IMG/VR virus record: IMGVR_UViG_2772190776_000003
Coordinates: 11,067-75,066 of that record
DNA length: 64,000 nucleotides
Direction: 5' to 3' (one strand)
From: a virus
Taxonomy: Duplodnaviria; Caudoviricetes
Made by a program: the position numbers and the translations under genes. Under the pieces are notes generated by a model. That model saw only the letters and a program-made list of their open reading frames with translations, did no database searches and had not been told where the DNA came from. Shown piece after piece: positions 6,924-58,609 of this stretch. The stretch's first letter is position 1; each line of letters begins with the position of its first letter.

Positions 6924-7850
6924 TTAAATAGAACGTAACTTGTATTTCTTTATCTCTGTCGCACTGACAGGATCACGAAATACGGTAACGCTTACAGGCA
7001 GATTTACGCTTTGCCCCAGGCGCATTGCGGACACCACATCGGCTTGAGCTTTTGGCTTGAATTTAATATTTATTTTTTCACCAGATGCCGTAAGCAATTG
7101 GATACGGCCTGATGCTGAAAGCAAACTAACAGCACCTGCTATTTCAGCATCTTTAGGCTCAGGGTCTTTAGTACTTTTTAAAAGTGTTCTGATGTGAATG
7201 ACTTCTGAATAAGAAATCATTTTGCTTTTGGCTGCACCATTGGCATGCCATTTCACTTCCACAGAGCATTCCTCTTTTTCAATGGCATACAGCACGTCGT
7301 GCAGTGCATCAGCAGCCATTTCCCCCAAACCATCAATGGAGGCATAGAACTCTGCCGCATCCCTGCCGCTATTAAGTGTGTCAAATAAGTGTTCAACACC
7401 TTCAACTAGCGCTGTGGTGCCAGTCATGTCTGGCATGGTGTTGCCAACAATAAATAAGCGGGCAGAGCCTTCTGCAAGGCCGGCGAGCTTGAGGTTCATT
7501 TCATTGGAGAAACTTTCGCCAGTGCCGTTTTCAGGCTCCTCATGGTTTCGGGCGAAATAGGCTGCGCGCAGCAATAGCTTGTTAAGGGGGTCTGACAGAC
7601 GCGCCAAAAGCCCCATTGGCACTGCGCCGCCTTCTGTGCTTTGACCAATCAAGCGCCATTCAAGCGCTTGAGCCGCAAGTAAACCTTTTGCCTCTTCAAG
7701 CTGAATTTCGGCTTTTCTAGCAGCACCTAGTTGGTTTTTTGCTGCGATTTTAAGAAGCGGGTTTGCAGGGTCTTGTGCTGACCGCTGTGCCGTGATGGTG
7801 GCGAATTCACGCAGTTTTTCTGCGTGCTGCTGGAGAAAGGCGAGATTCAT
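6924..7850 (-). CDS. Hypothetical protein coupled to the DUF6932 gene
   Basis: 308-aa ORF with a 4-bp overlap with the upstream gene; beta-rich C-terminus. Confidence 0.75.
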   Translation of the reverse strand: MNLAFLQQHAEKLREFATITAQRSAQDPANPLLKIAAKNQLGAARKAEIQLEEAKGLLAAQALEWRLIGQSTEGGAVPMGLLARLSDPLNKLLLRAAYFARNHEEPENGTGESFSNEMNLKLAGLAEGSARLFIVGNTMPDMTGTTALVEGVEHLFDTLNSGRDAAEFYASIDGLGEMAADALHDVLYAIEKEECSVEVKWHANGAAKSKMISYSEVIHIRTLLKSTKDPEPKDAEIAGAVSLLSASGRIQLLTASGEKINIKFKPKAQADVVSAMRLGQSVNLPVSVTVFRDPVSATEIKKYKLRSI

Positions 7851-8717: not shown

Positions 8718-11700
8718 TGCAGGCTAATTGGGGCAAATATGTCTTCGTCGGCTGTACTGGTGGCAGGCTGCGCCACGGCAAGCGGTACGGGGGCGGCCGG
8801 TGTTGAGGGCTGTGCGCCCTGCTCTTGCGCGGGTGGTGTGCTGAACAGGTCTGGCGGGGGCTGCACGGTTTGCTCCAGTTGCAGCCATTTAGACTCTGGC
8901 CATTTGTGGAGGCCGTTGGCCATGGCGGCATGCAGCGAATAGTTTCGGCAGTTGCCCGCGATGAAGGTTTTGCCGCCACGGCGCACGATCAAGGTGCCAT
9001 TGGGAACTGTTGCGCAATAGACACGCCCTGCGTAGTGCACGGTTTGGCCGATGTAGCCACGTTTGCCATTGCCACCGCCGTCTAGATAGGCACGCGAGGA
9101 AAGCCGTTCATAGACGTGGTATTGCAGTTTGGGGGTGGTGGGTGATTGATGCCCGCTGATGACAGGCCGGTGTTTGGGCTGCACCACCCGCATAGTGGCC
9201 GCGTTACCAGTTTTGATGAACAGCTCCTGCATGTCATCAGCCAGCAACCGCGATGTGGTTGCATAAGCCCGGTTTGGCCGGTGGTGCGCTTTGCGCTGCT
9301 GCGCCCAACCATCGCCTGCAATAGCGGCGTTCAGGAAGGCTGCGATTACGCTGGGCTTGGCATCTTTGATCCATTGCGGCACGCGGCGCTCATGCTGGAG
9401 TGCACCAAGCGGCGCCACGAGGTCGTAGACCTGTTTGCAGGTGAAGATGTATCTGTCATGGGTGACATGGAACTTCCAAGGCAGACGAGCGAGCAGTGCT
9501 TCAATTTCAAGACGTCGATGGGGCTTGGTTTGATGGATGGTGACGCGCCTGCGCACATTGCCTTGTGTTTTGCTGCGCACCTCTTGCACGGAGCCTTCTG
9601 ACACCCACCAGCCAAAGAAAGCGGCCATGTCATGCGCATCTACCGCGACTTCTGGGAACAAAAGGCGGTTTTGCGCTGATATGGAGGCGGGGATGACATA
9701 GGCGTCTGCCTGGTTGCCTTGCCAGGTGGCCGCAATTTTGAGGGCATGGTGAACGGTGAGGTCTTTCGCCAAGGTAATGGCCGGTGACACATCCAAGTTC
9801 CATTTGCGCACGCCGGGGGCAATGGTCTGATGCGCTTTCTTCAAGGTCACCATGCGGTGCCCAGGCGTTACCAGCACATCAATGGACTTGCCTTTGAGTT
9901 GCACCATGTCGCCGCTGTAGGGTTTGTCAATGAGTAGCGATGGCTGCTGGTACTCCATCAGGTCGGTGGACAGGTTGACCGTGGCCAGAAGGTCTTCATA
10001 GCAGACATCGCCCCAGCGCTTCCAGCCTGTATGGGTGAGCACTTCAGTTTCTGCGTCAAAGCAGTCCAACACTTCATTGCGTGGGCGGCGTTTGACCCAC
10101 TTGTAAACGTCCCGGCCTTGCACCTTGGCCAGGATGCGCTGCTCGGCAGTGAGCTGCTCATACCATTCGCGGGGGAGCTCCTGGCTGGTGTGCACATAGC
10201 CGGGGCCTGGCTCTGTAATGGCGAGCTGGCCCAGCAGCAGGTCTTTGGCGTTGTCTACGCCTACGAGCCACAGCTTGATGCCTTTGGCGATCTTGCGGCC
10301 GCGGTGGTTGACCTCCTGCATGCTGCTGGGGCCCACGATGTTGCGGTTGTCGTTGGTGTCACCCTTGATGGCACGGAGGTTGGCAATCCTGGTCTGGGTA
10401 TTGCGCACCCAGTTGTAGACGGCCTGGGTCTGGTCTGAGGAGTCAATGCTGACTGCAGACAAGCCCAGGGTGCCACCGTGGAGCGCCTGGGGGAAGCGCT
10501 GGAGCAGGAACTGCTCTACGGGCTCCCAATCTGCGTCATTGGCTGGGTTGCCGTAGATGACGTGGTGCATCACTGTCCAGCTCTCCAGGCCCCTGCCCCA
10601 CCCCCAGATGGCGATTTCCCAGCGGTCACGCTGCACGTCAACCCCGGCTGTCAGGTACAGCGCGCCCACAGGTACGCGGCCGAGCGGAAAGTCCTCTGCC
10701 CGCTGCTGCAGCACGTGCTCGTCGCTGCTTTCGCCCTTCACCTCCCAGGTCTCGCCCAGCGTTTCGTTGGTGAAGCTGGTCATGGGGCCCACGTCGCCAG
10801 CTTGCATGGCGCGGTAGGCTTTTTCGTGCTCGTCCACGATGCTGGCCCATGTGCGCTGGGGGCTGTAGGCCGCCCAGATGTGCACACCCAGGGTGCGCGG
10901 TGGGCGGCAGGGCTCGCCCTTGGCGTTGCGCCACTGGCCATCTGCGTCGTAGCGGATGCCGGTTTTCTTGCAGACCCATGCGCCGCTCAGGGGCCAGCCG
11001 CCGGGCAGGTAGTCTGCCTGGGTGATGCTTTCGCGGCAGTGGGGGCAGACGTGGCGCACGGTTTCGGGCTTGCCTTTTTCCCACTTGAAGCCATAGGGCA
11101 GGTCTTTGCTGCCCCAGATGAGCGGATGCTCACCACCGCAGTGCGGGCACTCTATGTGGTACTGCACATAGGCTTCAGACTCTTCACAGGCACGCTCTAC
11201 GTGGCACAGGCCTTTGATGCGGGGCGTGCTGCCGCCCACAAACTTGGGGTACGGCGCACCCTCCAGACGGCCCTTGGCCAGGCTGCCTGGGTCGCCGGAC
11301 TTCTCAATGGTCTGATCGAATGCGGACCATTCATCCAGAATGGACACGGCCACCGTAATACGCCGGTAAGCGCGTGCCGCCTTGCCACCCAGCAGGTGCA
11401 GCACCGAGTCACGGAAGGGCTTGTACTTGATGGTGTCCACCACGCCCTTGCCCTGCTTGCGTGCAGCGCGCACGGCGGGCACACCGTCCAGCACGGGCTC
11501 AATCTCGCTTTTGACGTAGCTGTCCCGGTCATCATCCGTGGGCTGCCATAGCGCCTGCTTGCGGCGGCGGTGGGCGATGTTGTAGGCCACAAAGGCCGTG
11601 ATCATCTTGGTATAGCCCACGCGCTTGGACTTTTTGACGGCCAGCTCCTCGATGCGGTCATCGCTCATGAAGTCCAGAATGCCGCGCTGGAAGGGCCACC

Positions 11701-51417: not shown

Positions 51418-52040
51418 AAGCCCGGCCCCCAGTGGCTGTAGCGGGGCTGCAGCTCATTCAAGATGCGGCGCGGATACTGCAGGTTCTCCCCGCAGTGCAC
51501 AGCTGCGCGGCGGGCTTTCCCGCAGGCTGCGTCCACTTGCTCGCGTGTGGGCTGGGTGGCACCGGAAGCCACGGCCTCACGTTGCCAATGGCCCAGCCCG
51601 CCGTTGTAGGCACGCAGCGCCACCCACATGCGGTCGTAGCTGCTATAGCGGGTGGGCGTGCGGTCGTAGAGGTATTTGTTGTAGCCCACCAGGGCACGCA
51701 AGGCCCAGGCAGGGTTGTGCGGCAGGCAGGCTGCGGGGGCAATCTTGTTCAGGTCACACCACCAGCTGGCGGTGGCGGGCATGAACTGGGCCAGGCCCCC
51801 AGCGCCTACGCGGCTGATGGCCTCTGGCTTCCAGGCAGATTCTTGGTGTACCTGTGCGGCAAAGACGGCCACGGGTGCATCCAAGCCCCACACGCTGTGT
51901 GCGGTGCGCACCAGCTGGGCACGGTATTGCTGGGCTGCGGCTGGCACCTGGGCCTGCACAGGCTGAGCGCAGGTGCTGAGCACAGCACCTGTCAGCGCTG
52001 CAGCAGCCAGCAGCCAGGCACGCATGGAACGGGCGCGCAT
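51414..52040 (-). CDS. Endolysin, SLT lytic transglycosylase with an N-terminal signal
   Basis: QVHQESAW, GLAQFMPAT, AYNGGLG. Confidence 0.9.
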   Translation of the reverse strand: MRARSMRAWLLAAAALTGAVLSTCAQPVQAQVPAAAQQYRAQLVRTAHSVWGLDAPVAVFAAQVHQESAWKPEAISRVGAGGLAQFMPATASWWCDLNKIAPAACLPHNPAWALRALVGYNKYLYDRTPTRYSSYDRMWVALRAYNGGLGHWQREAVASGATQPTREQVDAACGKARRAAVHCGENLQYPRRILNELQPRYSHWGPGL

Positions 52041-52043
52041 GGC

Positions 52044-52487
52044 TTATCCCCCCATGCTGACCGCAATCATTGCGGCCGCGATGATGACGGCCCGGCGCAG
52101 CATGCAGCCCAGCATGAAGTGCAGCGGTGCCGGGTCAATGGGGCCGCAGGTGGCGGTCATGACCTCGTCCAGCGGGATGCGTTGCCCGTCGCCTGCGAGG
52201 ATGTAGCCGCGCTCCTGGTCTTCTTGCGTGATCTCGATGCCGTCCAGGTCCCAAAGGGTGCGCAGCGCACGGGTGTCGGGGCGTGCATAGGGAAAGACTT
52301 TGCGGTCAATCCAGTACCCGGACACAGCGGCCACAGCGATCAGGTTGAGCTTGTACAGGCTGACGGGGATTTGCTGCGGCGCGATGAAAAACACCGCCAG
52401 CGACAGCAGCGCTGCAATCAGCCACCAGCTGGTCAGTCTGGGCAGCTTGGATTCGGACACGGGGGCAGGGGCCATGGCGTACTCCAT
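52044..52487 (-). CDS. Putative holin (2-3 TM)
   Basis: APQQIPVSLYKL...GYWIDRKVFPYARP...MLRRAVII. Confidence 0.85.
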   Translation of the reverse strand: MEYAMAPAPVSESKLPRLTSWWLIAALLSLAVFFIAPQQIPVSLYKLNLIAVAAVSGYWIDRKVFPYARPDTRALRTLWDLDGIEITQEDQERGYILAGDGQRIPLDEVMTATCGPIDPAPLHFMLGCMLRRAVIIAAAMIAVSMGG

Positions 52488-52536
52488 AAAAGACTTTCGG
52501 TCTGAAAGCCTTTACTGTGAAGCGCCGCATGCCTGC

Positions 52537-52555
52537 GGTCTTTTACCCCGCGTTA
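52537..52555 (-). promoter_or_regulatory. Putative Mor-dependent late promoter (lysis operon)
   Basis: Shared motif with 44172-44190. Confidence 0.6.
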
Positions 52556-52562
52556 CTAAAAC

Positions 52563-52895
52563 AAAACGGCCAATTTGGCCGTTTTCAAATCCGCCAAATT
52601 GGCAGATTCCAGCGTGTCATCGTCGTGGGTGACAAGCTCAAGGAATGCACTGGCTCGCCAGTGAGTGCCAGCTCATCAATCTGTTCATCATCCAGAACCA
52701 GCATTTCAAACAGCTTGGACTGTGAATCGACTGATTTCAAAAGCGTCGACGTCGACGCTTTTGAGAACTTCAACGCCGATTGCATGAATTTCTGTGCCAC
52801 GCGGGTTTCAATGCCCAGTGCTTTTGACCTGGGTGCTTAAAACCGCCAAATTGGCGGATTTGGCGGTCTTTGCCGCTGACTGCATAAAGCGTTGT
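52563..52895 (-). repeat. Array of palindromes and captured DUF3102-gene fragments
   Basis: 52820-52895 and 52605-52654 are exact reverse complements of 56203-56278 and 56279-56328; 52655-52819 is a foreign homologous fragment; four palindromes. Confidence 0.9.
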
Positions 52896-52994
52896 TCTCA
52901 GGAACGTCACAATGCCAAGCCGTGCGCGACGGCTGGCAATGATCGCGGCCAGTGTGGCCAAGCCAAAAAAAACGATAAAGCCCAGTAGTTCCAT
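52770..52994 (-). pseudogene. Membrane-protein gene truncated by the captured fragment
   Basis: TM N-terminus MELLGFIVFFGLATLAAIIAS runs at 52895 into an out-of-frame copy of DUF3102-gene sequence. Confidence 0.5.
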
Positions 52995-53012
52995 GGTTTG
53001 CCCCCCCGGCGC

Positions 53013-53495
53013 TTATGCGCCTATTTCTTCGTGCATTTTGATTTCGCTTCGTTCAATGATCGTCTCACAGTAGCGGCGTGCACGAAATACCTCCCCGTCA
53101 GTCAGTTCAAGCACGCGGCTGGTGCCGAACGTGGTCTCCATCCACTTCACCACTGTCTGCTCTTTGCCGGTGCGGCGCATCAGCCGCAGCAGCTCCCTCC
53201 GGTCCACCGTGAGGCGCTGCTTTTTTTCAGTCTGCACTACTGGCCGGTTTTGAATGTGCAGGGTCACCTGGTTGACCACCACCGGGCCGCCTGCCTGGCC
53301 TATCTGTACATTGCCTTTGCCTACATCAGCCATGGTCATGCCAGTGCCCATATTTGCGGCCTCTGCTGCAGGCGTAAGTCCTTGCACTGGTGGTGGCGGG
53401 GGTGGCGGTTCTGTCTGTGGGGCCGGGCCATTGTTTAACACGTACCTCACTGCGGTTCGCAGCTTTTTTTTGAACCATTGCCACATTTCACACAC
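53013..53495 (-). CDS. Hypothetical protein co-transcribed with the repressor
   Basis: GGAG RBS; shares TMADVGKGNVQIGQ with the repressor tail TMSHVGDGNVQVGQ. Confidence 0.65.
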   Translation of the reverse strand: MCEMWQWFKKKLRTAVRYVLNNGPAPQTEPPPPPPPVQGLTPAAEAANMGTGMTMADVGKGNVQIGQAGGPVVVNQVTLHIQNRPVVQTEKKQRLTVDRRELLRLMRRTGKEQTVVKWMETTFGTSRVLELTDGEVFRARRYCETIIERSEIKMHEEIGA

Positions 53496-53532
53496 TCCCT
53501 GCCGTGACCCGGCCTTTGTTGTTATTGCCCGA

Positions 53533-53928
53533 TTACTGCCCTTGCTTGACTTTCACCCTCGCGCCTTGGCCCACCTGCACGTTGCCATCGCCCACATGCG
53601 ACATCGTCATGCCGCCTGGCGCCCCCGACGCTAATGCCGCGATGGCGGCCTTGCGCACGGCAGGCGCCGCATCACGAAAGAGATGCAGCAGGGTTTGCTC
53701 TTCCATGGTGAGCTGCGGTGCTTGTGTGTCTCCGCGTTTGCCCGTAACCACATAGGCCACGTCTACGCCGGCCATGGCCACGCCTGCCAGGTATTCGGCA
53801 TCTGGCGTGCGATCCCCTGCCTCGTAGTTGATCTGCGCGCGTTTTTGCACGCCGCCGATGGCGGCGAACCGTTCCTGAGAGACCTTGAGGCGCTCCCGTT
53901 CTTCGCGCAATCGTTGCCCTATGCTCAT
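53533..53928 (-). CDS. Transposable-phage repressor (XRE HTH)
   Basis: IGQRLREERERLKVSQERFAAIGGVQKRAQINYEAGDRTPDAEYL. Confidence 0.9.
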   Translation of the reverse strand: MSIGQRLREERERLKVSQERFAAIGGVQKRAQINYEAGDRTPDAEYLAGVAMAGVDVAYVVTGKRGDTQAPQLTMEEQTLLHLFRDAAPAVRKAAIAALASGAPGGMTMSHVGDGNVQVGQGARVKVKQGQ

Positions 53929-53947
53929 TTAGACACCAAAAAATGTA

Positions 53948-53976
53948 TTGCAAAGGTGCACAAACGTGCACATAAT
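53948..53976 (+). promoter_or_regulatory. Early promoter with operator
   Basis: TTGCAA-17-CATAAT with the GTGCAC-AAAC-GTGCAC dyad in the spacer. Confidence 0.7.
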
Positions 53977-54039
53977 GCGTTCAACAAGTTCAACAAATCA
54001 CTACTAGTTAGCGCTAGTAGCTACACAAAGGGACGCAGC

Positions 54040-54294
54040 ATGACACCCAAAACTTGCGAACAGGCCCCGGTGCTCAAAACGCGCGAACAAGTCCGCAACG
54101 AGTTCAGAAGCAAGGGCTTATCGATCTCCGCGTGGGCGGTGAAGCATGGTTTCAACCCTGCGCTGGTGACCGCCATCATCAACGATGACGATGCCAGGCC
54201 CGCACGCAAATGCCTGCGCGGCGACAGCCACAACATTGCTGTCGCGCTGGGCATCAAAAGCGGCGAGGTCTCCCGCGAGCGTCTGGTTGCCTGA
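54040..54294 (+). CDS. Ner-like DNA-binding protein (BcepMu gp16 type)
   Basis: GLSISAWAVKHGF...CLRGDSHNIAVALGIK; divergent from the repressor. Confidence 0.85.
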   Translation: MTPKTCEQAPVLKTREQVRNEFRSKGLSISAWAVKHGFNPALVTAIINDDDARPARKCLRGDSHNIAVALGIKSGEVSRERLVA

Positions 54295-54372
54295 GCGTCC
54301 CTATGTTGCAGCGAAATATTACAGGCAATCCGCCGGGCCAGGCGCAGCTGATGTTTGCCCAATGTCACCGCG

Positions 54373-54666
54373 TCACCCCCCGTACTTGCGGGTTTGAGGC
54401 AAGTCATTGCCGTCCACCAGTCCTGCCAGCTGGCACAGGTACAGCTGCCAGCTGTTCCATGCAGCGCCGTCGCGGTCTTTTCGTCCATCTGCCCGTGCCT
54501 GCAGCTCCAGCCTTTGCGCTGCATCCAGCAGGCTTTGCCGTGGCAGCTGGCGTGCCAGCTCAACCAGCAGCCAGTGCTGCGCCCATGCCTGGTCCTCGAG
54601 TGGCCGCAGGCGCTGCTGCACGGCCCGCTCGACCAGCTTTTGCATCAGTGAAGTGTCAACGCCCAT
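54373..54666 (-). CDS. Hypothetical protein
   Basis: 97 aa with a GGAGG RBS, antisense to the early operon. Confidence 0.5.
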   Translation of the reverse strand: MGVDTSLMQKLVERAVQQRLRPLEDQAWAQHWLLVELARQLPRQSLLDAAQRLELQARADGRKDRDGAAWNSWQLYLCQLAGLVDGNDLPQTRKYGG

Positions 54667-55876: not shown

Positions 55877-56800
55877 ATGGCTCGTACCCCTAACGCAGTG
55901 CTTAAACCCGTGGCCGACGTCGTGCTCAACGACCAGGCTGTTGCACGTATTGAAAGCGCACAGGAGGCGCTGGCTGTCATGGACCAGGAGGCCCAGGCCC
56001 GCGTCCGCGCTGTGGCCTTGAGTGTGGGCTATGAGGGCACATTGAGTGTGGGAGCGCTGGAAGGCGAGATTCGCTTTTATCAGCGCCGCACGGTCGAGGC
56101 CATTTTGGAAACCGGCAAGCGCTTGCTGGTGCTCAAGGAGATGACCCCGCATGGCGAGTTCAAGCAGCGTGTGGAGATGCTCGGATTTTCCGAGCGCACA
56201 GCACAACGCTTTATGCAGTCAGCGGCAAAGACCGCCAAATCCGCCAATTTGGCGGTTTTAAGCACCCAGGTCAAAAGCGCCAGTGCATTCCTTGAGCTTG
56301 TCACCCACGACGATGACACGCTGGAATCCCTCAAGGACATGGACGACATCGACCGCATGAGCGCCAGCGAGCTGCGCCAGGCCCTGCGCCAGGCCAAGGA
56401 GGACAACCGCTTCCTGGCAGAAAAGCGCGACAAGGAGTCGCAGCGTGCCGACAAGCTGGAAAAACAGCTGCGCTCTGGTCCCAGCACGCAGCCACTGGAC
56501 GAACGTCTGCAGGGCTTTTGCGCCGATATCAACAAGGCTAACGACGCGGCATGCGAGGCATTGCTGCAGGCCAAGCAGCAGGCCCAGGCGCTGGAGCGCT
56601 GGTGGCTGGAAGAAGCCGCCAAGCAGCCCGGCTACTCGCCTGGCGACTACGTGCCGATGCCCGATGAGGTCAAGGCAGCGGCCCAAAAGCTCTACGACAA
56701 CCTGTCACGCCTGACTCTGTCCGCCGCCGCATTGCGCCAGGAGCTGTGGGACACCTACGGCCAGGACCTGCAGGCTTTCGTGGATACCACCGCCGCATAA
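55877..56800 (+). CDS. DUF3102-like protein preceding the transposase
   Basis: ILETGKRLLVLKEMTPHGEF...GFSERTAQRFM; IDRMSASELRQALR. Confidence 0.78.
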   Translation: MARTPNAVLKPVADVVLNDQAVARIESAQEALAVMDQEAQARVRAVALSVGYEGTLSVGALEGEIRFYQRRTVEAILETGKRLLVLKEMTPHGEFKQRVEMLGFSERTAQRFMQSAAKTAKSANLAVLSTQVKSASAFLELVTHDDDTLESLKDMDDIDRMSASELRQALRQAKEDNRFLAEKRDKESQRADKLEKQLRSGPSTQPLDERLQGFCADINKANDAACEALLQAKQQAQALERWWLEEAAKQPGYSPGDYVPMPDEVKAAAQKLYDNLSRLTLSAAALRQELWDTYGQDLQAFVDTTAA

Positions 56801-56803
56801 GCC

Positions 56804-58609
56804 ATGCACACCGACCTGGAGGCTACTGACATGGCTTCACTGAGCCCTGCAATCTGCGATTACATCCGTCAGCTGGCGCGCAAGCTGGATGACGCGCCCC
56901 ACGGCACGGGCGGCAAGCTGCTGGACGAGGCCACCGCATTCCTGGGCATGAGCCGCCAGACCGTGTACCGCCACCTCAAGAAGGTGGCGGGCTGGGAAAG
57001 TGGCCGCAAGTGCCGTGCCGACAAAGGCACCACTAGCGTGAACAGCGCCGCGCTGCTGACGCTGGCCACGATCCAGCGCGAGAGCGTGCGCGACAACGGC
57101 AAGCAGACCATGCACACCCCGGTGGCACGCAGCGTGCTGGAGGCCAATGGCCTGCAAGTGGACGTGAGTAACGCGCACCTGAACCGGCTATTGCGTGACC
57201 GCGGGTTGAATGTGCAGGCCCAGCGCCAGGCAACGCCTGCAACCAAGCTGCGCTACCCGCACCCCAATCACACGCACCAGGTGGACCCCAGCCTGTGCCT
57301 GGTGTACTACCTCAACGGCCGCCAGCACATCATGGAGGACAGCCAGTTCTACAAGAACAAGCTCGAAAACCTTGCGAAAGTGAAGTTCAAGGTCTGGCGG
57401 TATGCCCTCTACGACGGTGCGTCGGGCGCAATCGTGGTCTGGTACTGCGAAGCAGCGGGCGAGACCCAGGCCAACCTGTTCAACTTCCTGATGCACGCAT
57501 GGGGCAAGCAGGATGGCCGCCTGTTTCATGGTGTGCCCAAGGTGATGGTGTGGGACAAGGGCTCGGCCAACACATCGCACGCTATCGGCCACCTGTTGCG
57601 CGCGCTGGAAGTGGAGGCGATCACCCACGAGGCCGGCAATGCACGCGCCAAAGGCGGCGTGGAAAACGCCAACAACGTCATCGAAACCCAGTTCGAGAGC
57701 CGCCTGCGCTTTGAACCTGTGGACAACGTCGAGCAGCTCAATGCTGCGGCCACGGCCTGGTGTGAGGCATACAACGCCAACCTGATCCCCGGCCAAGACA
57801 CTCGCCTGCGCCGCGATGGCTTGGCCGAGCCTGTGTCGCGCTATGCACTGTGGCAGCGCATCCGCAGCGATGAACTGCGCCTGCTGCCTGATGTGGAGGT
57901 GTGCCGCGCGCTGATGGCGGGCAAAGAAGTGGAACGCAAGGTGGATGCGCACCTGTGCATCCGCTTTAAGCACCCCAAGGCAGAGTCCACGCGCACCTAC
58001 AGCCTCAGCGGCCTGCATGGCGTGAATGTGGGTGACGTTGTCAGTGTGCGGCCCCTGGTGTATGGCGAGCAGGCCATACAGATCGAGCTGCAGCGCTACG
58101 ACGGTGAGCCGCTGGTGTACCGCGTCGAACCAGAAACCGAGTTTGACGAATTCGGTTTCCCGCTGTCTGCCGCCGTGCCTGGCGAGGGCTACAAGTCCCA
58201 CGCCAAGACCGTGGCCGAGGCGGCCGGCGAGGCGATGGACGAGCTGGCCTTCCCTGGCCAGGACGCCACGGCAGCACGTCAAAAAGGGGCTGTGCCGTTT
58301 GGCGGCGAGATCAAGGCGCACAGCTACCTGGCCGAAGTCGAGCACCCCAGCTATCTGCAGCGCCCCGGCGTGGAAATCGCCACACCTGCGCACGCCAAGG
58401 CCGAGCCGGTGCTGCTCGACGCTGTCACCGTGATGCTGCGCATCCGCAAGGAGCTGGGCCGCAATCTGACGGTGCAAGAGAACCAGTTTATGACCGCGCG
58501 TTTCAAGGACGGCGTGCCAGAAGACCAGCTGGCCGTGCTCATTGAGCAGCTCAAGAACGCCGGCAAGGATCAGCCCGCACGCGCCGCTGGCGGCCTGCGT
58601 GTGGTGTGA
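56804..58609 (+). CDS. DDE transposase (MuA-equivalent)
   Basis: HQVDPS, VWDKGSAN, AKGGVENANN catalytic triad; RADKG. Confidence 0.92.
   Translation: MHTDLEATDMASLSPAICDYIRQLARKLDDAPHGTGGKLLDEATAFLGMSRQTVYRHLKKVAGWESGRKCRADKGTTSVNSAALLTLATIQRESVRDNGKQTMHTPVARSVLEANGLQVDVSNAHLNRLLRDRGLNVQAQRQATPATKLRYPHPNHTHQVDPSLCLVYYLNGRQHIMEDSQFYKNKLENLAKVKFKVWRYALYDGASGAIVVWYCEAAGETQANLFNFLMHAWGKQDGRLFHGVPKVMVWDKGSANTSHAIGHLLRALEVEAITHEAGNARAKGGVENANNVIETQFESRLRFEPVDNVEQLNAAATAWCEAYNANLIPGQDTRLRRDGLAEPVSRYALWQRIRSDELRLLPDVEVCRALMAGKEVERKVDAHLCIRFKHPKAESTRTYSLSGLHGVNVGDVVSVRPLVYGEQAIQIELQRYDGEPLVYRVEPETEFDEFGFPLSAAVPGEGYKSHAKTVAEAAGEAMDELAFPGQDATAARQKGAVPFGGEIKAHSYLAEVEHPSYLQRPGVEIATPAHAKAEPVLLDAVTVMLRIRKELGRNLTVQENQFMTARFKDGVPEDQLAVLIEQLKNAGKDQPARAAGGLRVV

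Follow-up and report, generated by a model that had tools for sequence, protein, structure and literature searches.

Why should a provirus carry, directly ahead of its lysis genes, inverted fragments of one of its own early genes with a fragment of a foreign homologue set between them? The question is raised by IMG/VR virus record IMGVR_UViG_2772190776_000003, a 75-kb provirus of which a stretch of 64,000 nucleotides (positions 11,067 to 75,066; hereafter the window) was analysed. At positions 52563 to 52898, the window holds an array of four palindromes, P1 to P4, two of which lie in captured pieces of genes of the DUF3102 family, a widespread phage and plasmid protein family that, to our knowledge, is without a tested function. 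A preliminary description of the same DNA regarded the array as an acquired collection of binding sites or RNA hairpins for DUF3102-like proteins, which could act as a record of related phages or as a decoy. The answer favoured here is a plainer one: on balance, the stretch is probably a young recombination scar seeded by palindromes and not a maintained regulatory array. No description of such a locus was found in the literature, of which mostly titles and abstract openings were examined.

The identities of the captured pieces and the junctions between them can be read directly from the DNA. Pieces A and B (coordinates in Table 1) are contiguous in the resident DUF3102 gene and lie 165 nt apart in the array, on either side of 52655–52819. 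Repeat search and scripted comparison place the sole mismatch of A at 52896, leaving an exact copy of 76 nt (52820–52895, equal to 56203–56278), and they bear out the earlier claim that 56203–56328 recurs exactly, inverted, as arms of 76 and 50 bp. The segment between the arms, piece X, had been described as a 165-bp fragment of a different homologue, and it reads as such, its minus strand translating as LGIETRVAQKFMQSALKFSKASTSTLLKSVDSQSKLFEMLVLDDEQIDEL. The donor search suggested for 52655–52819 found 87–88% identity over 163–164 nt in the DUF3102 genes of IMG/VR contigs L013–L016, 72% identity to BcepMu gp10, and complete identity (165/165 nt) to a 586-nt contig of sequencing run X8, which comes from a related isolate. 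This contig extends the gene on both sides, with HGSFVARLEV before LGIE and TG.LKLD after ALTGE, and therefore a donor-like intact allele exists. In run X1, piece X is found solely in one contig that spans B-X-A, and the 75-kb record has no other copy; thus, the donor gene is not co-resident there.

Since the pieces match their sources at 128 of 129 and at 165 of 165 nt, they are young and without mark of selection. Much of what was captured lies outside the palindromes, namely 106 of the 129 nt of resident origin and 137 of the 165 nt of piece X. The fragments had been called mutually out of frame, which holds for piece X, shifted by one base; A, B, P1 and P2 share one frame, the 165 nt being equal to 55 codons. 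When X is read in the frame of A and B, it contains stop codons. The joints resemble those left by DNA repair. P2 and B overlap in the letters GATT (52605–52608), a typical microhomology joint that cuts the outer right edge of P2 and drops its outer TTTG, still present in run X16. Piece X interrupts the A|B boundary exactly, without clear microhomology, and the X|B joint generates a new inverted repeat of the form 7-2-7.

All four palindromes are related to sequences found inside DUF3102 genes. P3 is indeed a perfect 28-mer and P1 has perfect 11-nt arms, as the preliminary description had it. P3 recurs exactly in four IMG/VR contigs, always at conserved codons of the DUF3102 gene. P1 has a 15-nt core, CGGCCAATTTGGCCG, identical to the dyad inside the gene of locus L045, and agrees with the resident dyad at 20 of 23 letters; P2 is one mismatch away from the in-gene dyad CAAATCCGCCAAATTGGCGGATTTG of L043 and L053. 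A degenerate 23-mer, AAAWCCGCCAAWTTGGCGGWTTT, searched with up to three mismatches, has four matches in the window (three in the array and one in the gene) and none in any of 100 shuffled sequences.

The absence of the block from relatives is likewise a direct observation. The comparison set of 95 loci, which was searched by tblastn with six DUF3102 proteins, consists of the window, BcepMu, Ps60, 12 genome loci and 80 IMG/VR loci. A second DUF3102-like place occurs in the window only (1/95); tblastn finds none in the other 94 loci, 81 of which have at least 3.5 kb of DNA upstream of the gene. All 39 phage and 16 plasmid records that match DUF3102 do so at a single place. The idea that related prophages would also hold palindrome-bearing fragments here is not supported, no such second place being present in 94 loci, 39 phage and 16 plasmid records. 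A second copy of a locus’s own dyad, sought at 78% identity or more in flanks of up to 7 kb on each side, was found nowhere besides the window among the 68 of the 95 loci that could be examined in this way, which are those with a dyad at the conserved place. The 28-mer spanning P1 and P2 has no match in IMG/VR and none in metagenome contigs, and a 29-mer from the leader of the late promoter has none in IMG/VR and a single one among metagenome contigs (L145). In 401 genomes from the family of genome G001, a DNA search did not find the array and yielded only matches to the holin-like and DUF3102 genes, at 67–86% identity, while a locus search based on the holin gave four loci, all of them among five contigs found earlier through the DUF3102 protein.

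Closer relatives are seen in sequencing runs. Parts of 52300–53100 are contained in 20 rows from 12 studies, with no RNA data set listed, and related isolates were compared as short contigs from four runs (X1, X8, X16 and X19) of 24 listed; no inference was drawn from uncovered stretches, namely 52615–52654 and most of 52820–52924 in X8 and 52606–52898 in X16. Other metagenome runs, which contain 0.71–0.84 of sampled words, were discounted, as an array-free sample that has the prophage, the resident gene and a type-II gene could by estimate reach about 0.84. In X19, one contig links 52603 to 52990, with 52604–52989 replaced by 41 different letters. In X16, a contig departs from the window at 52605 and continues with 71 unlike letters, and a separate contig resumes at 52899; the first 30 of the divergent letters carry P2 further and read KSAKLAGLSG... 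on the plus strand, a sequence that is itself DUF3102-like and in the opposite orientation. Metagenome contig L145 is 97% identical to the window over 52207–52584 and diverges after P1, with P2 absent. P1 is also present in contigs of X8, X16 and X19, where P2 is covered up to 52603–52614. Hence, P1 is the oldest part of the array, P2 is common to at least four isolates, and the DNA that adjoins P2 on its right differs from one examined lineage to the next, a variability that fits a recombination hot spot. The block is lineage-specific, identical or nearly identical to its sources and rich in flanking DNA outside the dyads, and it probably disrupts a small open reading frame (ORF); it is therefore read as, on balance, a young scar at a palindromic terminator.

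Table 1. Array components, their sources in the resident DUF3102 gene, and neighbouring features (window positions).
Feature	Position	Strand	Remarks
Piece A	52820–52898	-	Inverted copy of 56200–56278; 78/79 nt, 99% (repeat search)
Piece B	52605–52654	-	Inverted copy of 56279–56328; 50/50 nt; ASAFLELVTHDDDTLES
Piece X	52655–52819	-	165 nt of type-II (BcepMu/B3-like) DUF3102 central domain, between A and B
P1	52563–52585	-	Perfect 11-1-11 palindrome
P2	52587–52609		Imperfect palindrome, KSAKLADL spelling
P3	52737–52764		Perfect 28-mer dyad within X
P4	52839–52861		Copy of resident in-gene dyad, within A; 10/11 arm positions pair
Source segment in resident DUF3102 gene	56200–56328	+	Repeat search and scripted comparison
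Resident in-gene dyad	56237–56259		Codons K-S-A-N-L-A-V-L
Resident DUF3102 gene	55877–56800	+	Pfam PF11300, E 2.6e-7; PHROG 1748, E 1.5e-41
rve-type transposase gene	56804–58609	+	Pfam rve; directly downstream of DUF3102 gene
74-codon ORF	52770–52994	-	Final 42 codons = pieces A and X, out of frame
Holin/lysis operon leader and promoter region	52488–52562	-	Putative promoter
Holin	52044–52487	-	Holin_2-3, E 1.3e-22; member of lysis genes
Helix-turn-helix (HTH) repressor	53533–53928	-	Gene order analysis

The palindromes themselves are a feature of the DUF3102 family, as can be observed across its genes. Of 82 distinct homologous genes, 61 have, in a 90-nt interval beginning 10 codons past the ‘LG’ of the HTH, a dyad whose arms match at 10 or more positions with no more than one mismatch; among control intervals drawn from those genes, the count is 7 of 683. 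The claim that palindromes occupy equivalent codons in different homologues is in this way substantiated, and the dyads co-vary. Among 27 distinct dyads of even length, CAAA/TTTG is invariant at positions 10–13 from the centre, whereas positions 5–9 each show three to four Watson–Crick pair types and remain complementary in 24–27 of the 27. Complementarity reaches the centre, being present in 27/27 at position 2 and in 24/27 at position 1. The 20 distinct dyads of odd length keep CAA-N-TTG and outer AAA/TTT, with co-variation at positions 4–8. Taken over the family, compensatory changes occur at positions 4–9 from the dyad centre, and G-T accounts for only 6 of 52 arm mismatches. Symmetry extending to the centre and the paucity of G-T favour recognition of double-stranded DNA by a symmetric partner over an RNA hairpin. 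Phage B3 has the dyad too, as does gp01 of Bacillus phage IEBH; its occurrence is therefore tied to the gene family, not to transposition.

Two explanations of the in-gene dyad were set aside. The operator of the repressor as partner of the dyad was rejected, because none of the 68 loci (of 95) open to this comparison repeats its in-gene dyad, at 78% identity or above, in the early control region. A role as in-gene terminator or attenuator was judged weak, since type-II dyads precede only three T residues.

A number of individual loci show variations of this element. The DUF3102 gene of Ps60 is without a dyad at the usual codons; the repressor gene Ps60_20 (L007 9287–9318) carries a 32-nt dyad of the DUF3102 class, with 14 of 15 arm pairs and the reading SNVALTAHLTK, located in the linker after the repressor HTH domain. 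A second palindrome, ATTCGTCCCAAATTGGGAC(A/G)AAT, lies upstream of the HTH in L030 and L045 (~7281–7303), as well as in L009 and L012, where it occupies an insertion of about nine codons (NSSQIGTN) that certain type-I DUF3102 genes contain; it has the look of a palindrome inserted into coding sequence. BcepMu gp10 (L006 ~7030–7070) has a perfect 30-mer dyad followed by a third copy of AAAGCGGCG, and two overlapping alternative dyads are possible there, in which the arm CGCCGCTTT pairs with either neighbour; L072, L076 and L078 retain only the second alternative. In L012 and L045 (8001–8926), the DUF3102 gene matches in two frames, over residues 1–199 and 200–299, and is probably frameshifted.

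The partner that reads the dyad is most likely the DUF3102 protein, for which the in-gene dyad would be a docking site. AlphaFold2, given an alignment of 78 sequences, returned an all-helical model with a mean predicted local distance difference test score (pLDDT) of 89.2; an earlier model from seven sequences (pLDDT 64.8) was poor and was discarded. The dyad-encoded residues 121–128 form most of a helix (123–131) that follows helix 106–121. When the model was searched with VIA-align against 48,161 chains, the DNA-binding domain of KorB took the two top rows, superposed on model residues 75–175: 8qa8_A (Z 7.4, root-mean-square deviation (rmsd) 2.7 Å, 95 residues) and 1r71_A (Z 7.1, rmsd 2.6 Å, 95 of 114 residues), Z values under 8 being common in such a search and below the safe level. 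The remaining rows among the matches listed are coiled-coil-like on residues 198–307, except rank 45, a low-quality full-length alignment with an rmsd of 24.3 Å. Foldseek against the PDB returned nothing at E ≤ 0.001 (Spo0J at rank 18, E 1.4). When the PDB was searched with profiles from 7 or from 78 sequences, coiled-coil noise alone came up, and the six matches that the 78-sequence profile gave at E up to 10 include no ParB or KorB chain; for the central domain, Pfam found DUF3102 only, with E values as high as 10 admitted. As a lead from structural modelling, then, the central domain may adopt a KorB-like HTH fold, followed by long C-terminal helices. The suggestion that the palindromes are sites for DUF3102-like proteins of different specificities is thus a reasonable reading, given the covariation and the possible KorB-like fold; the accompanying idea of a collection is not supported, as there is no sign that one is maintained.

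For P1, a role can be predicted. Its terminator features are directly observed: it is the best terminator-like site in 52000–54400, on the minus strand, with 10 pairs, a loop of 3 and the tail GTTTTAGTAA, and its RNA folds at -17.3 kcal/mol (z-score -2.33). The GC-containing stem-loop and the U tract downstream of a gene are those of an intrinsic terminator. In L145, the upstream ORF is a different one and its stop codon lies about 35 nt before P1; in all relatives examined, P1 stands just before the conserved holin leader. P1 is accordingly predicted to be an intrinsic terminator upstream of the late or lysis promoter, and its interpretation as a trimmed allele of a DUF3102 palindrome is not supported, in view of its position after an upstream gene in L145. 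Beyond P1, the leader region 52488–52562 is 97% identical in L145. A motif composed of AAGAC(C/T)G, about 17–20 nt, and CA(G/A)AGT occurs at 52500–52545 of the window and in the DNA upstream of the holin in L149–L152 (~2400–2470), and is a candidate core of a late (Mor-type) promoter.

How could such an array arise? We infer the repair mechanism and the order of events, as well as the protein binding, from the features above. The process would be ectopic recombination or templated repair at a palindrome located between the immunity module and the lysis operon. The oldest element would be the P1 terminator, which would end leftward transcription before the late promoter. P1 and the in-gene DUF3102 palindromes share the same build (AAAA, a GC arm and a CAA-N-TTG centre), and such a palindrome would offer homology in both orientations, so that breaks or stalled forks might be repaired on DUF3102 genes, leaving dyad copies together with their flanks. 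The first capture may have been L043-like, with P2 as its remnant; 129 bp of the resident gene would then have been added, inverted, and joined through four letters. The inversion would follow from the ability of a palindrome to pair with a like palindrome in either orientation. Finally, the 165-bp piece of a foreign type-II allele would have been inserted into the resident copy. As an incidental result, the scar would set two sites of the resident type and one of the foreign type beside the late promoter, and, because the dyads are probably docking sites, it may well have regulatory side effects.

Independent support for the dyad as a recombination boundary comes from the gene itself. Between the window gene and that of L032, identity is 50–67% as far as the dyad and about 97% over gene nucleotides 387–495 (window 56263–56371), a sharp change suggestive of recent exchange of the conserved block downstream. 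DUF3102 proteins are, moreover, mosaics of two central-domain types.

Several points weigh against the reading of the array as a scar. The exact return to the resident copy at 56278/56279 after piece X is unlike simple template switching and is not predicted by it, and the step in which X was inserted is therefore unexplained. That one slot captured DNA repeatedly could be due to selection for additional sites and not to a mutational hot spot. P1 and P2 adjoin the late promoter in contigs of at least four isolates, and selection could therefore have acted on these two, at least, as sites. Their arrangement also resembles that of the OB site beside the -35 element of PkorA, as far as the available part of the KorB source describes it. 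The relatives are visible as short contigs only, and X1 perhaps represents the window’s own assembly data. Lastly, binding of the dyads by DUF3102 proteins is something that we infer.

These points are the core of the most serious alternative, a selected operator cluster, which is possible but rather unlikely. According to it, the four dyads, situated between the terminator and the late promoter, are putative docking sites for resident and heterologous DUF3102 proteins, and early proteins of the prophage itself and of related phages that superinfect would repress, insulate or titrate there. Such a cluster would accord with the dyads as a conserved, co-varying family element, with a possible KorB-like fold of the protein (at a modest Z), and with the retention of P1 and P2 in the contigs of four isolates. 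KorB itself employs a promoter-adjacent OB site, according to the part of PMC11790492 that was available, and the dyad in the Ps60 repressor gene indicates that a site can lie elsewhere in the early region. Nevertheless, A-X-B is absent or replaced in X16, X19, L145, the 94 other loci and the 39 phage records; the copies are identical to their sources, and nothing indicates retention; an array of sites would have no need of the captured flanks; and P1 is accounted for as a terminator. The claim of a record or decoy coupling late-gene control to foreign proteins is not supported, as nothing shows such coupling and the block is replaced in X16, X19 and L145. A combined view, in which dyad-seeded recombination lets the prophage gather sites for its own and foreign DUF3102 proteins beside its late promoter and terminator as a selected multi-specificity cluster, is less likely still and is put forward as a speculation. 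If it were true, the lysis or late operon would answer to, or soak up, early proteins of related superinfecting phages, and the captured gene flanks would reveal the birth of arrays with multiple spellings.

An RNA element is a much weaker candidate and seems very improbable. Hairpins at the 3' end of the leftward immunity transcript would then serve as stabilisers, processing sites or small RNAs, and all four dyads do fold stably (-13 to -21 kcal/mol, z-scores -2.3 to -4.8), with the gene pieces in the sense orientation of leftward transcription. Against this, the symmetry of the family reaches the centre in nearly all even-length dyads, where a hairpin loop needs none, and G-T pairs are scarce among arm mismatches. 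There is no Rfam match (best E 0.9, at 18.9 bits against a gathering score of 62), and a sense copy would be unable to pair with DUF3102 mRNA.

A silent cassette or inversion switch deserves hardly any credence. The repeats (79 and 50 nt, 3.3 kb apart) would swap a specificity segment of DUF3102 or invert the immunity region, and exact arms bracketing a variant X do have the layout of a gene-conversion cassette. However, X is homologous to A and B themselves and not to a segment between them, and its stop codons in the A/B frame mean that transfer would kill the gene. Were inversion to occur at A, the gene would be broken after codon 134 and the early promoter parted from the transposase genes, and Pfam finds no recombinase family among the 10 neighbouring ORFs scanned. 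An assembly or sequencing artefact, that is, a chimeric join at palindromes, is scarcely tenable as well, for even if palindromes and inverted repeats may mislead assemblers and the record may stem from the same data as X1, it would require four separate joins within 300 nt, each array junction lies inside an X1 contig built from 31-mers (52000–52628, 52628–52825, 52866–972) at a depth of 19–25, equal to that of the flanks, and X1 has no second copy of X with other flanks and thus no template for a chimera.

The surroundings of the array are those of a transposable prophage, as gene order near it (ORFs, Pfam and PHROG) matches BcepMu/B3-like transposable phages. The minus strand has, in order, the lysis genes, the array, two unassigned ORFs and the HTH repressor, while the plus strand has genes for a Ner-like protein, a CII-like protein and a small regulator, then the DUF3102 gene and the rve-type transposase. 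The 74-codon ORF that overlaps A and X is probably a disrupted or spurious small membrane ORF; Pfam and PHROG searches returned no family for it. A 160-residue ORF with a proline run lies between the repressor and the array (53013–53495, minus strand), also with no family returned by Pfam and PHROG. The gene content of the slot between repressor and holin differs in each relative examined.

In this locus, four spellings of the DUF3102 palindrome occur naturally next to one another, two of them in traceable gene pieces, and it provides direct evidence that out-of-gene palindromes of this class can arise by copying of DUF3102 genes. With a promoter-proximal fragment, a resident protein and an identifiable foreign allele, it is a compact test bed for the idea of one protein, one spelling. 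If it is only a scar, DUF3102 palindromes would still mark recombination-prone points of module exchange between transposable phages.

Comparison with known systems helps to place these features. Titles and abstract openings of the literature on B3-like and transposable phages do not mention the array element among the matches listed, and those naming DUF3102 yielded nothing relevant; the palindromes in the available part of PMC5977238 are host target sites resembling repetitive extragenic palindromic (REP) elements. Clustered regularly interspaced short palindromic repeats (CRISPR) are regular, whereas the dyads here have start-to-start spacings of 24 and 252 nt and different spellings. A diversity-generating retroelement is likewise not indicated, as the copies differ at 1 of 129 positions and the ORFs scanned include no reverse transcriptase.

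For the array itself, the closest parallel is templated or ectopic repair at quasi-palindromes, together with filler-DNA insertions, which are generally known processes. Like their products, the array consists of inverted, partial and nested copies with 0–4 nt shared at the joints, and pairing in either orientation is possible; the difference is that X sits exactly between 56278 and 56279 without clear microhomology, so the likeness in mechanism is a proposed one. P1 resembles the Rho-independent terminators found between prophage modules in its 10-bp stem, 3-nt loop and U-rich tail, and differs from ordinary ones in that its stem is spelled as a DUF3102 dyad.

For the putative protein–site pair, KorB and its OB sites on the IncP plasmid RK2 offer a model from the ParB superfamily. 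KorB reportedly makes base-specific contacts outside its HTH. As far as the part of the source available shows, KorB represses PkorA from an OB site that lies immediately upstream of the promoter's -35 element (PMC11790492), so that palindromic sites and a promoter-adjacent position are common to both systems. On the other hand, DUF3102 proteins show no sequence similarity to KorB in the PDB profile search, and Pfam finds no N-terminal ParB domain (for the 307-residue protein it returns DUF3102 only, with no ParB/CTP-binding domain); their dyads are 23–30 bp long, vary in spelling by lineage and lie inside the protein’s own gene.

This last property has parallels elsewhere. The λ origin within gene O and parS within spo0J are sites located inside the gene of the protein that uses them. 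As in DUF3102 genes, the cis site lies in the coding region just past the DNA-binding part, and site and encoded peptide change together between lineages. DUF3102 genes differ from λ O in having one dyad instead of iterons and no sign of an origin, and their family is found in transposition-replicating phages as well as in Bacillus phage IEBH.

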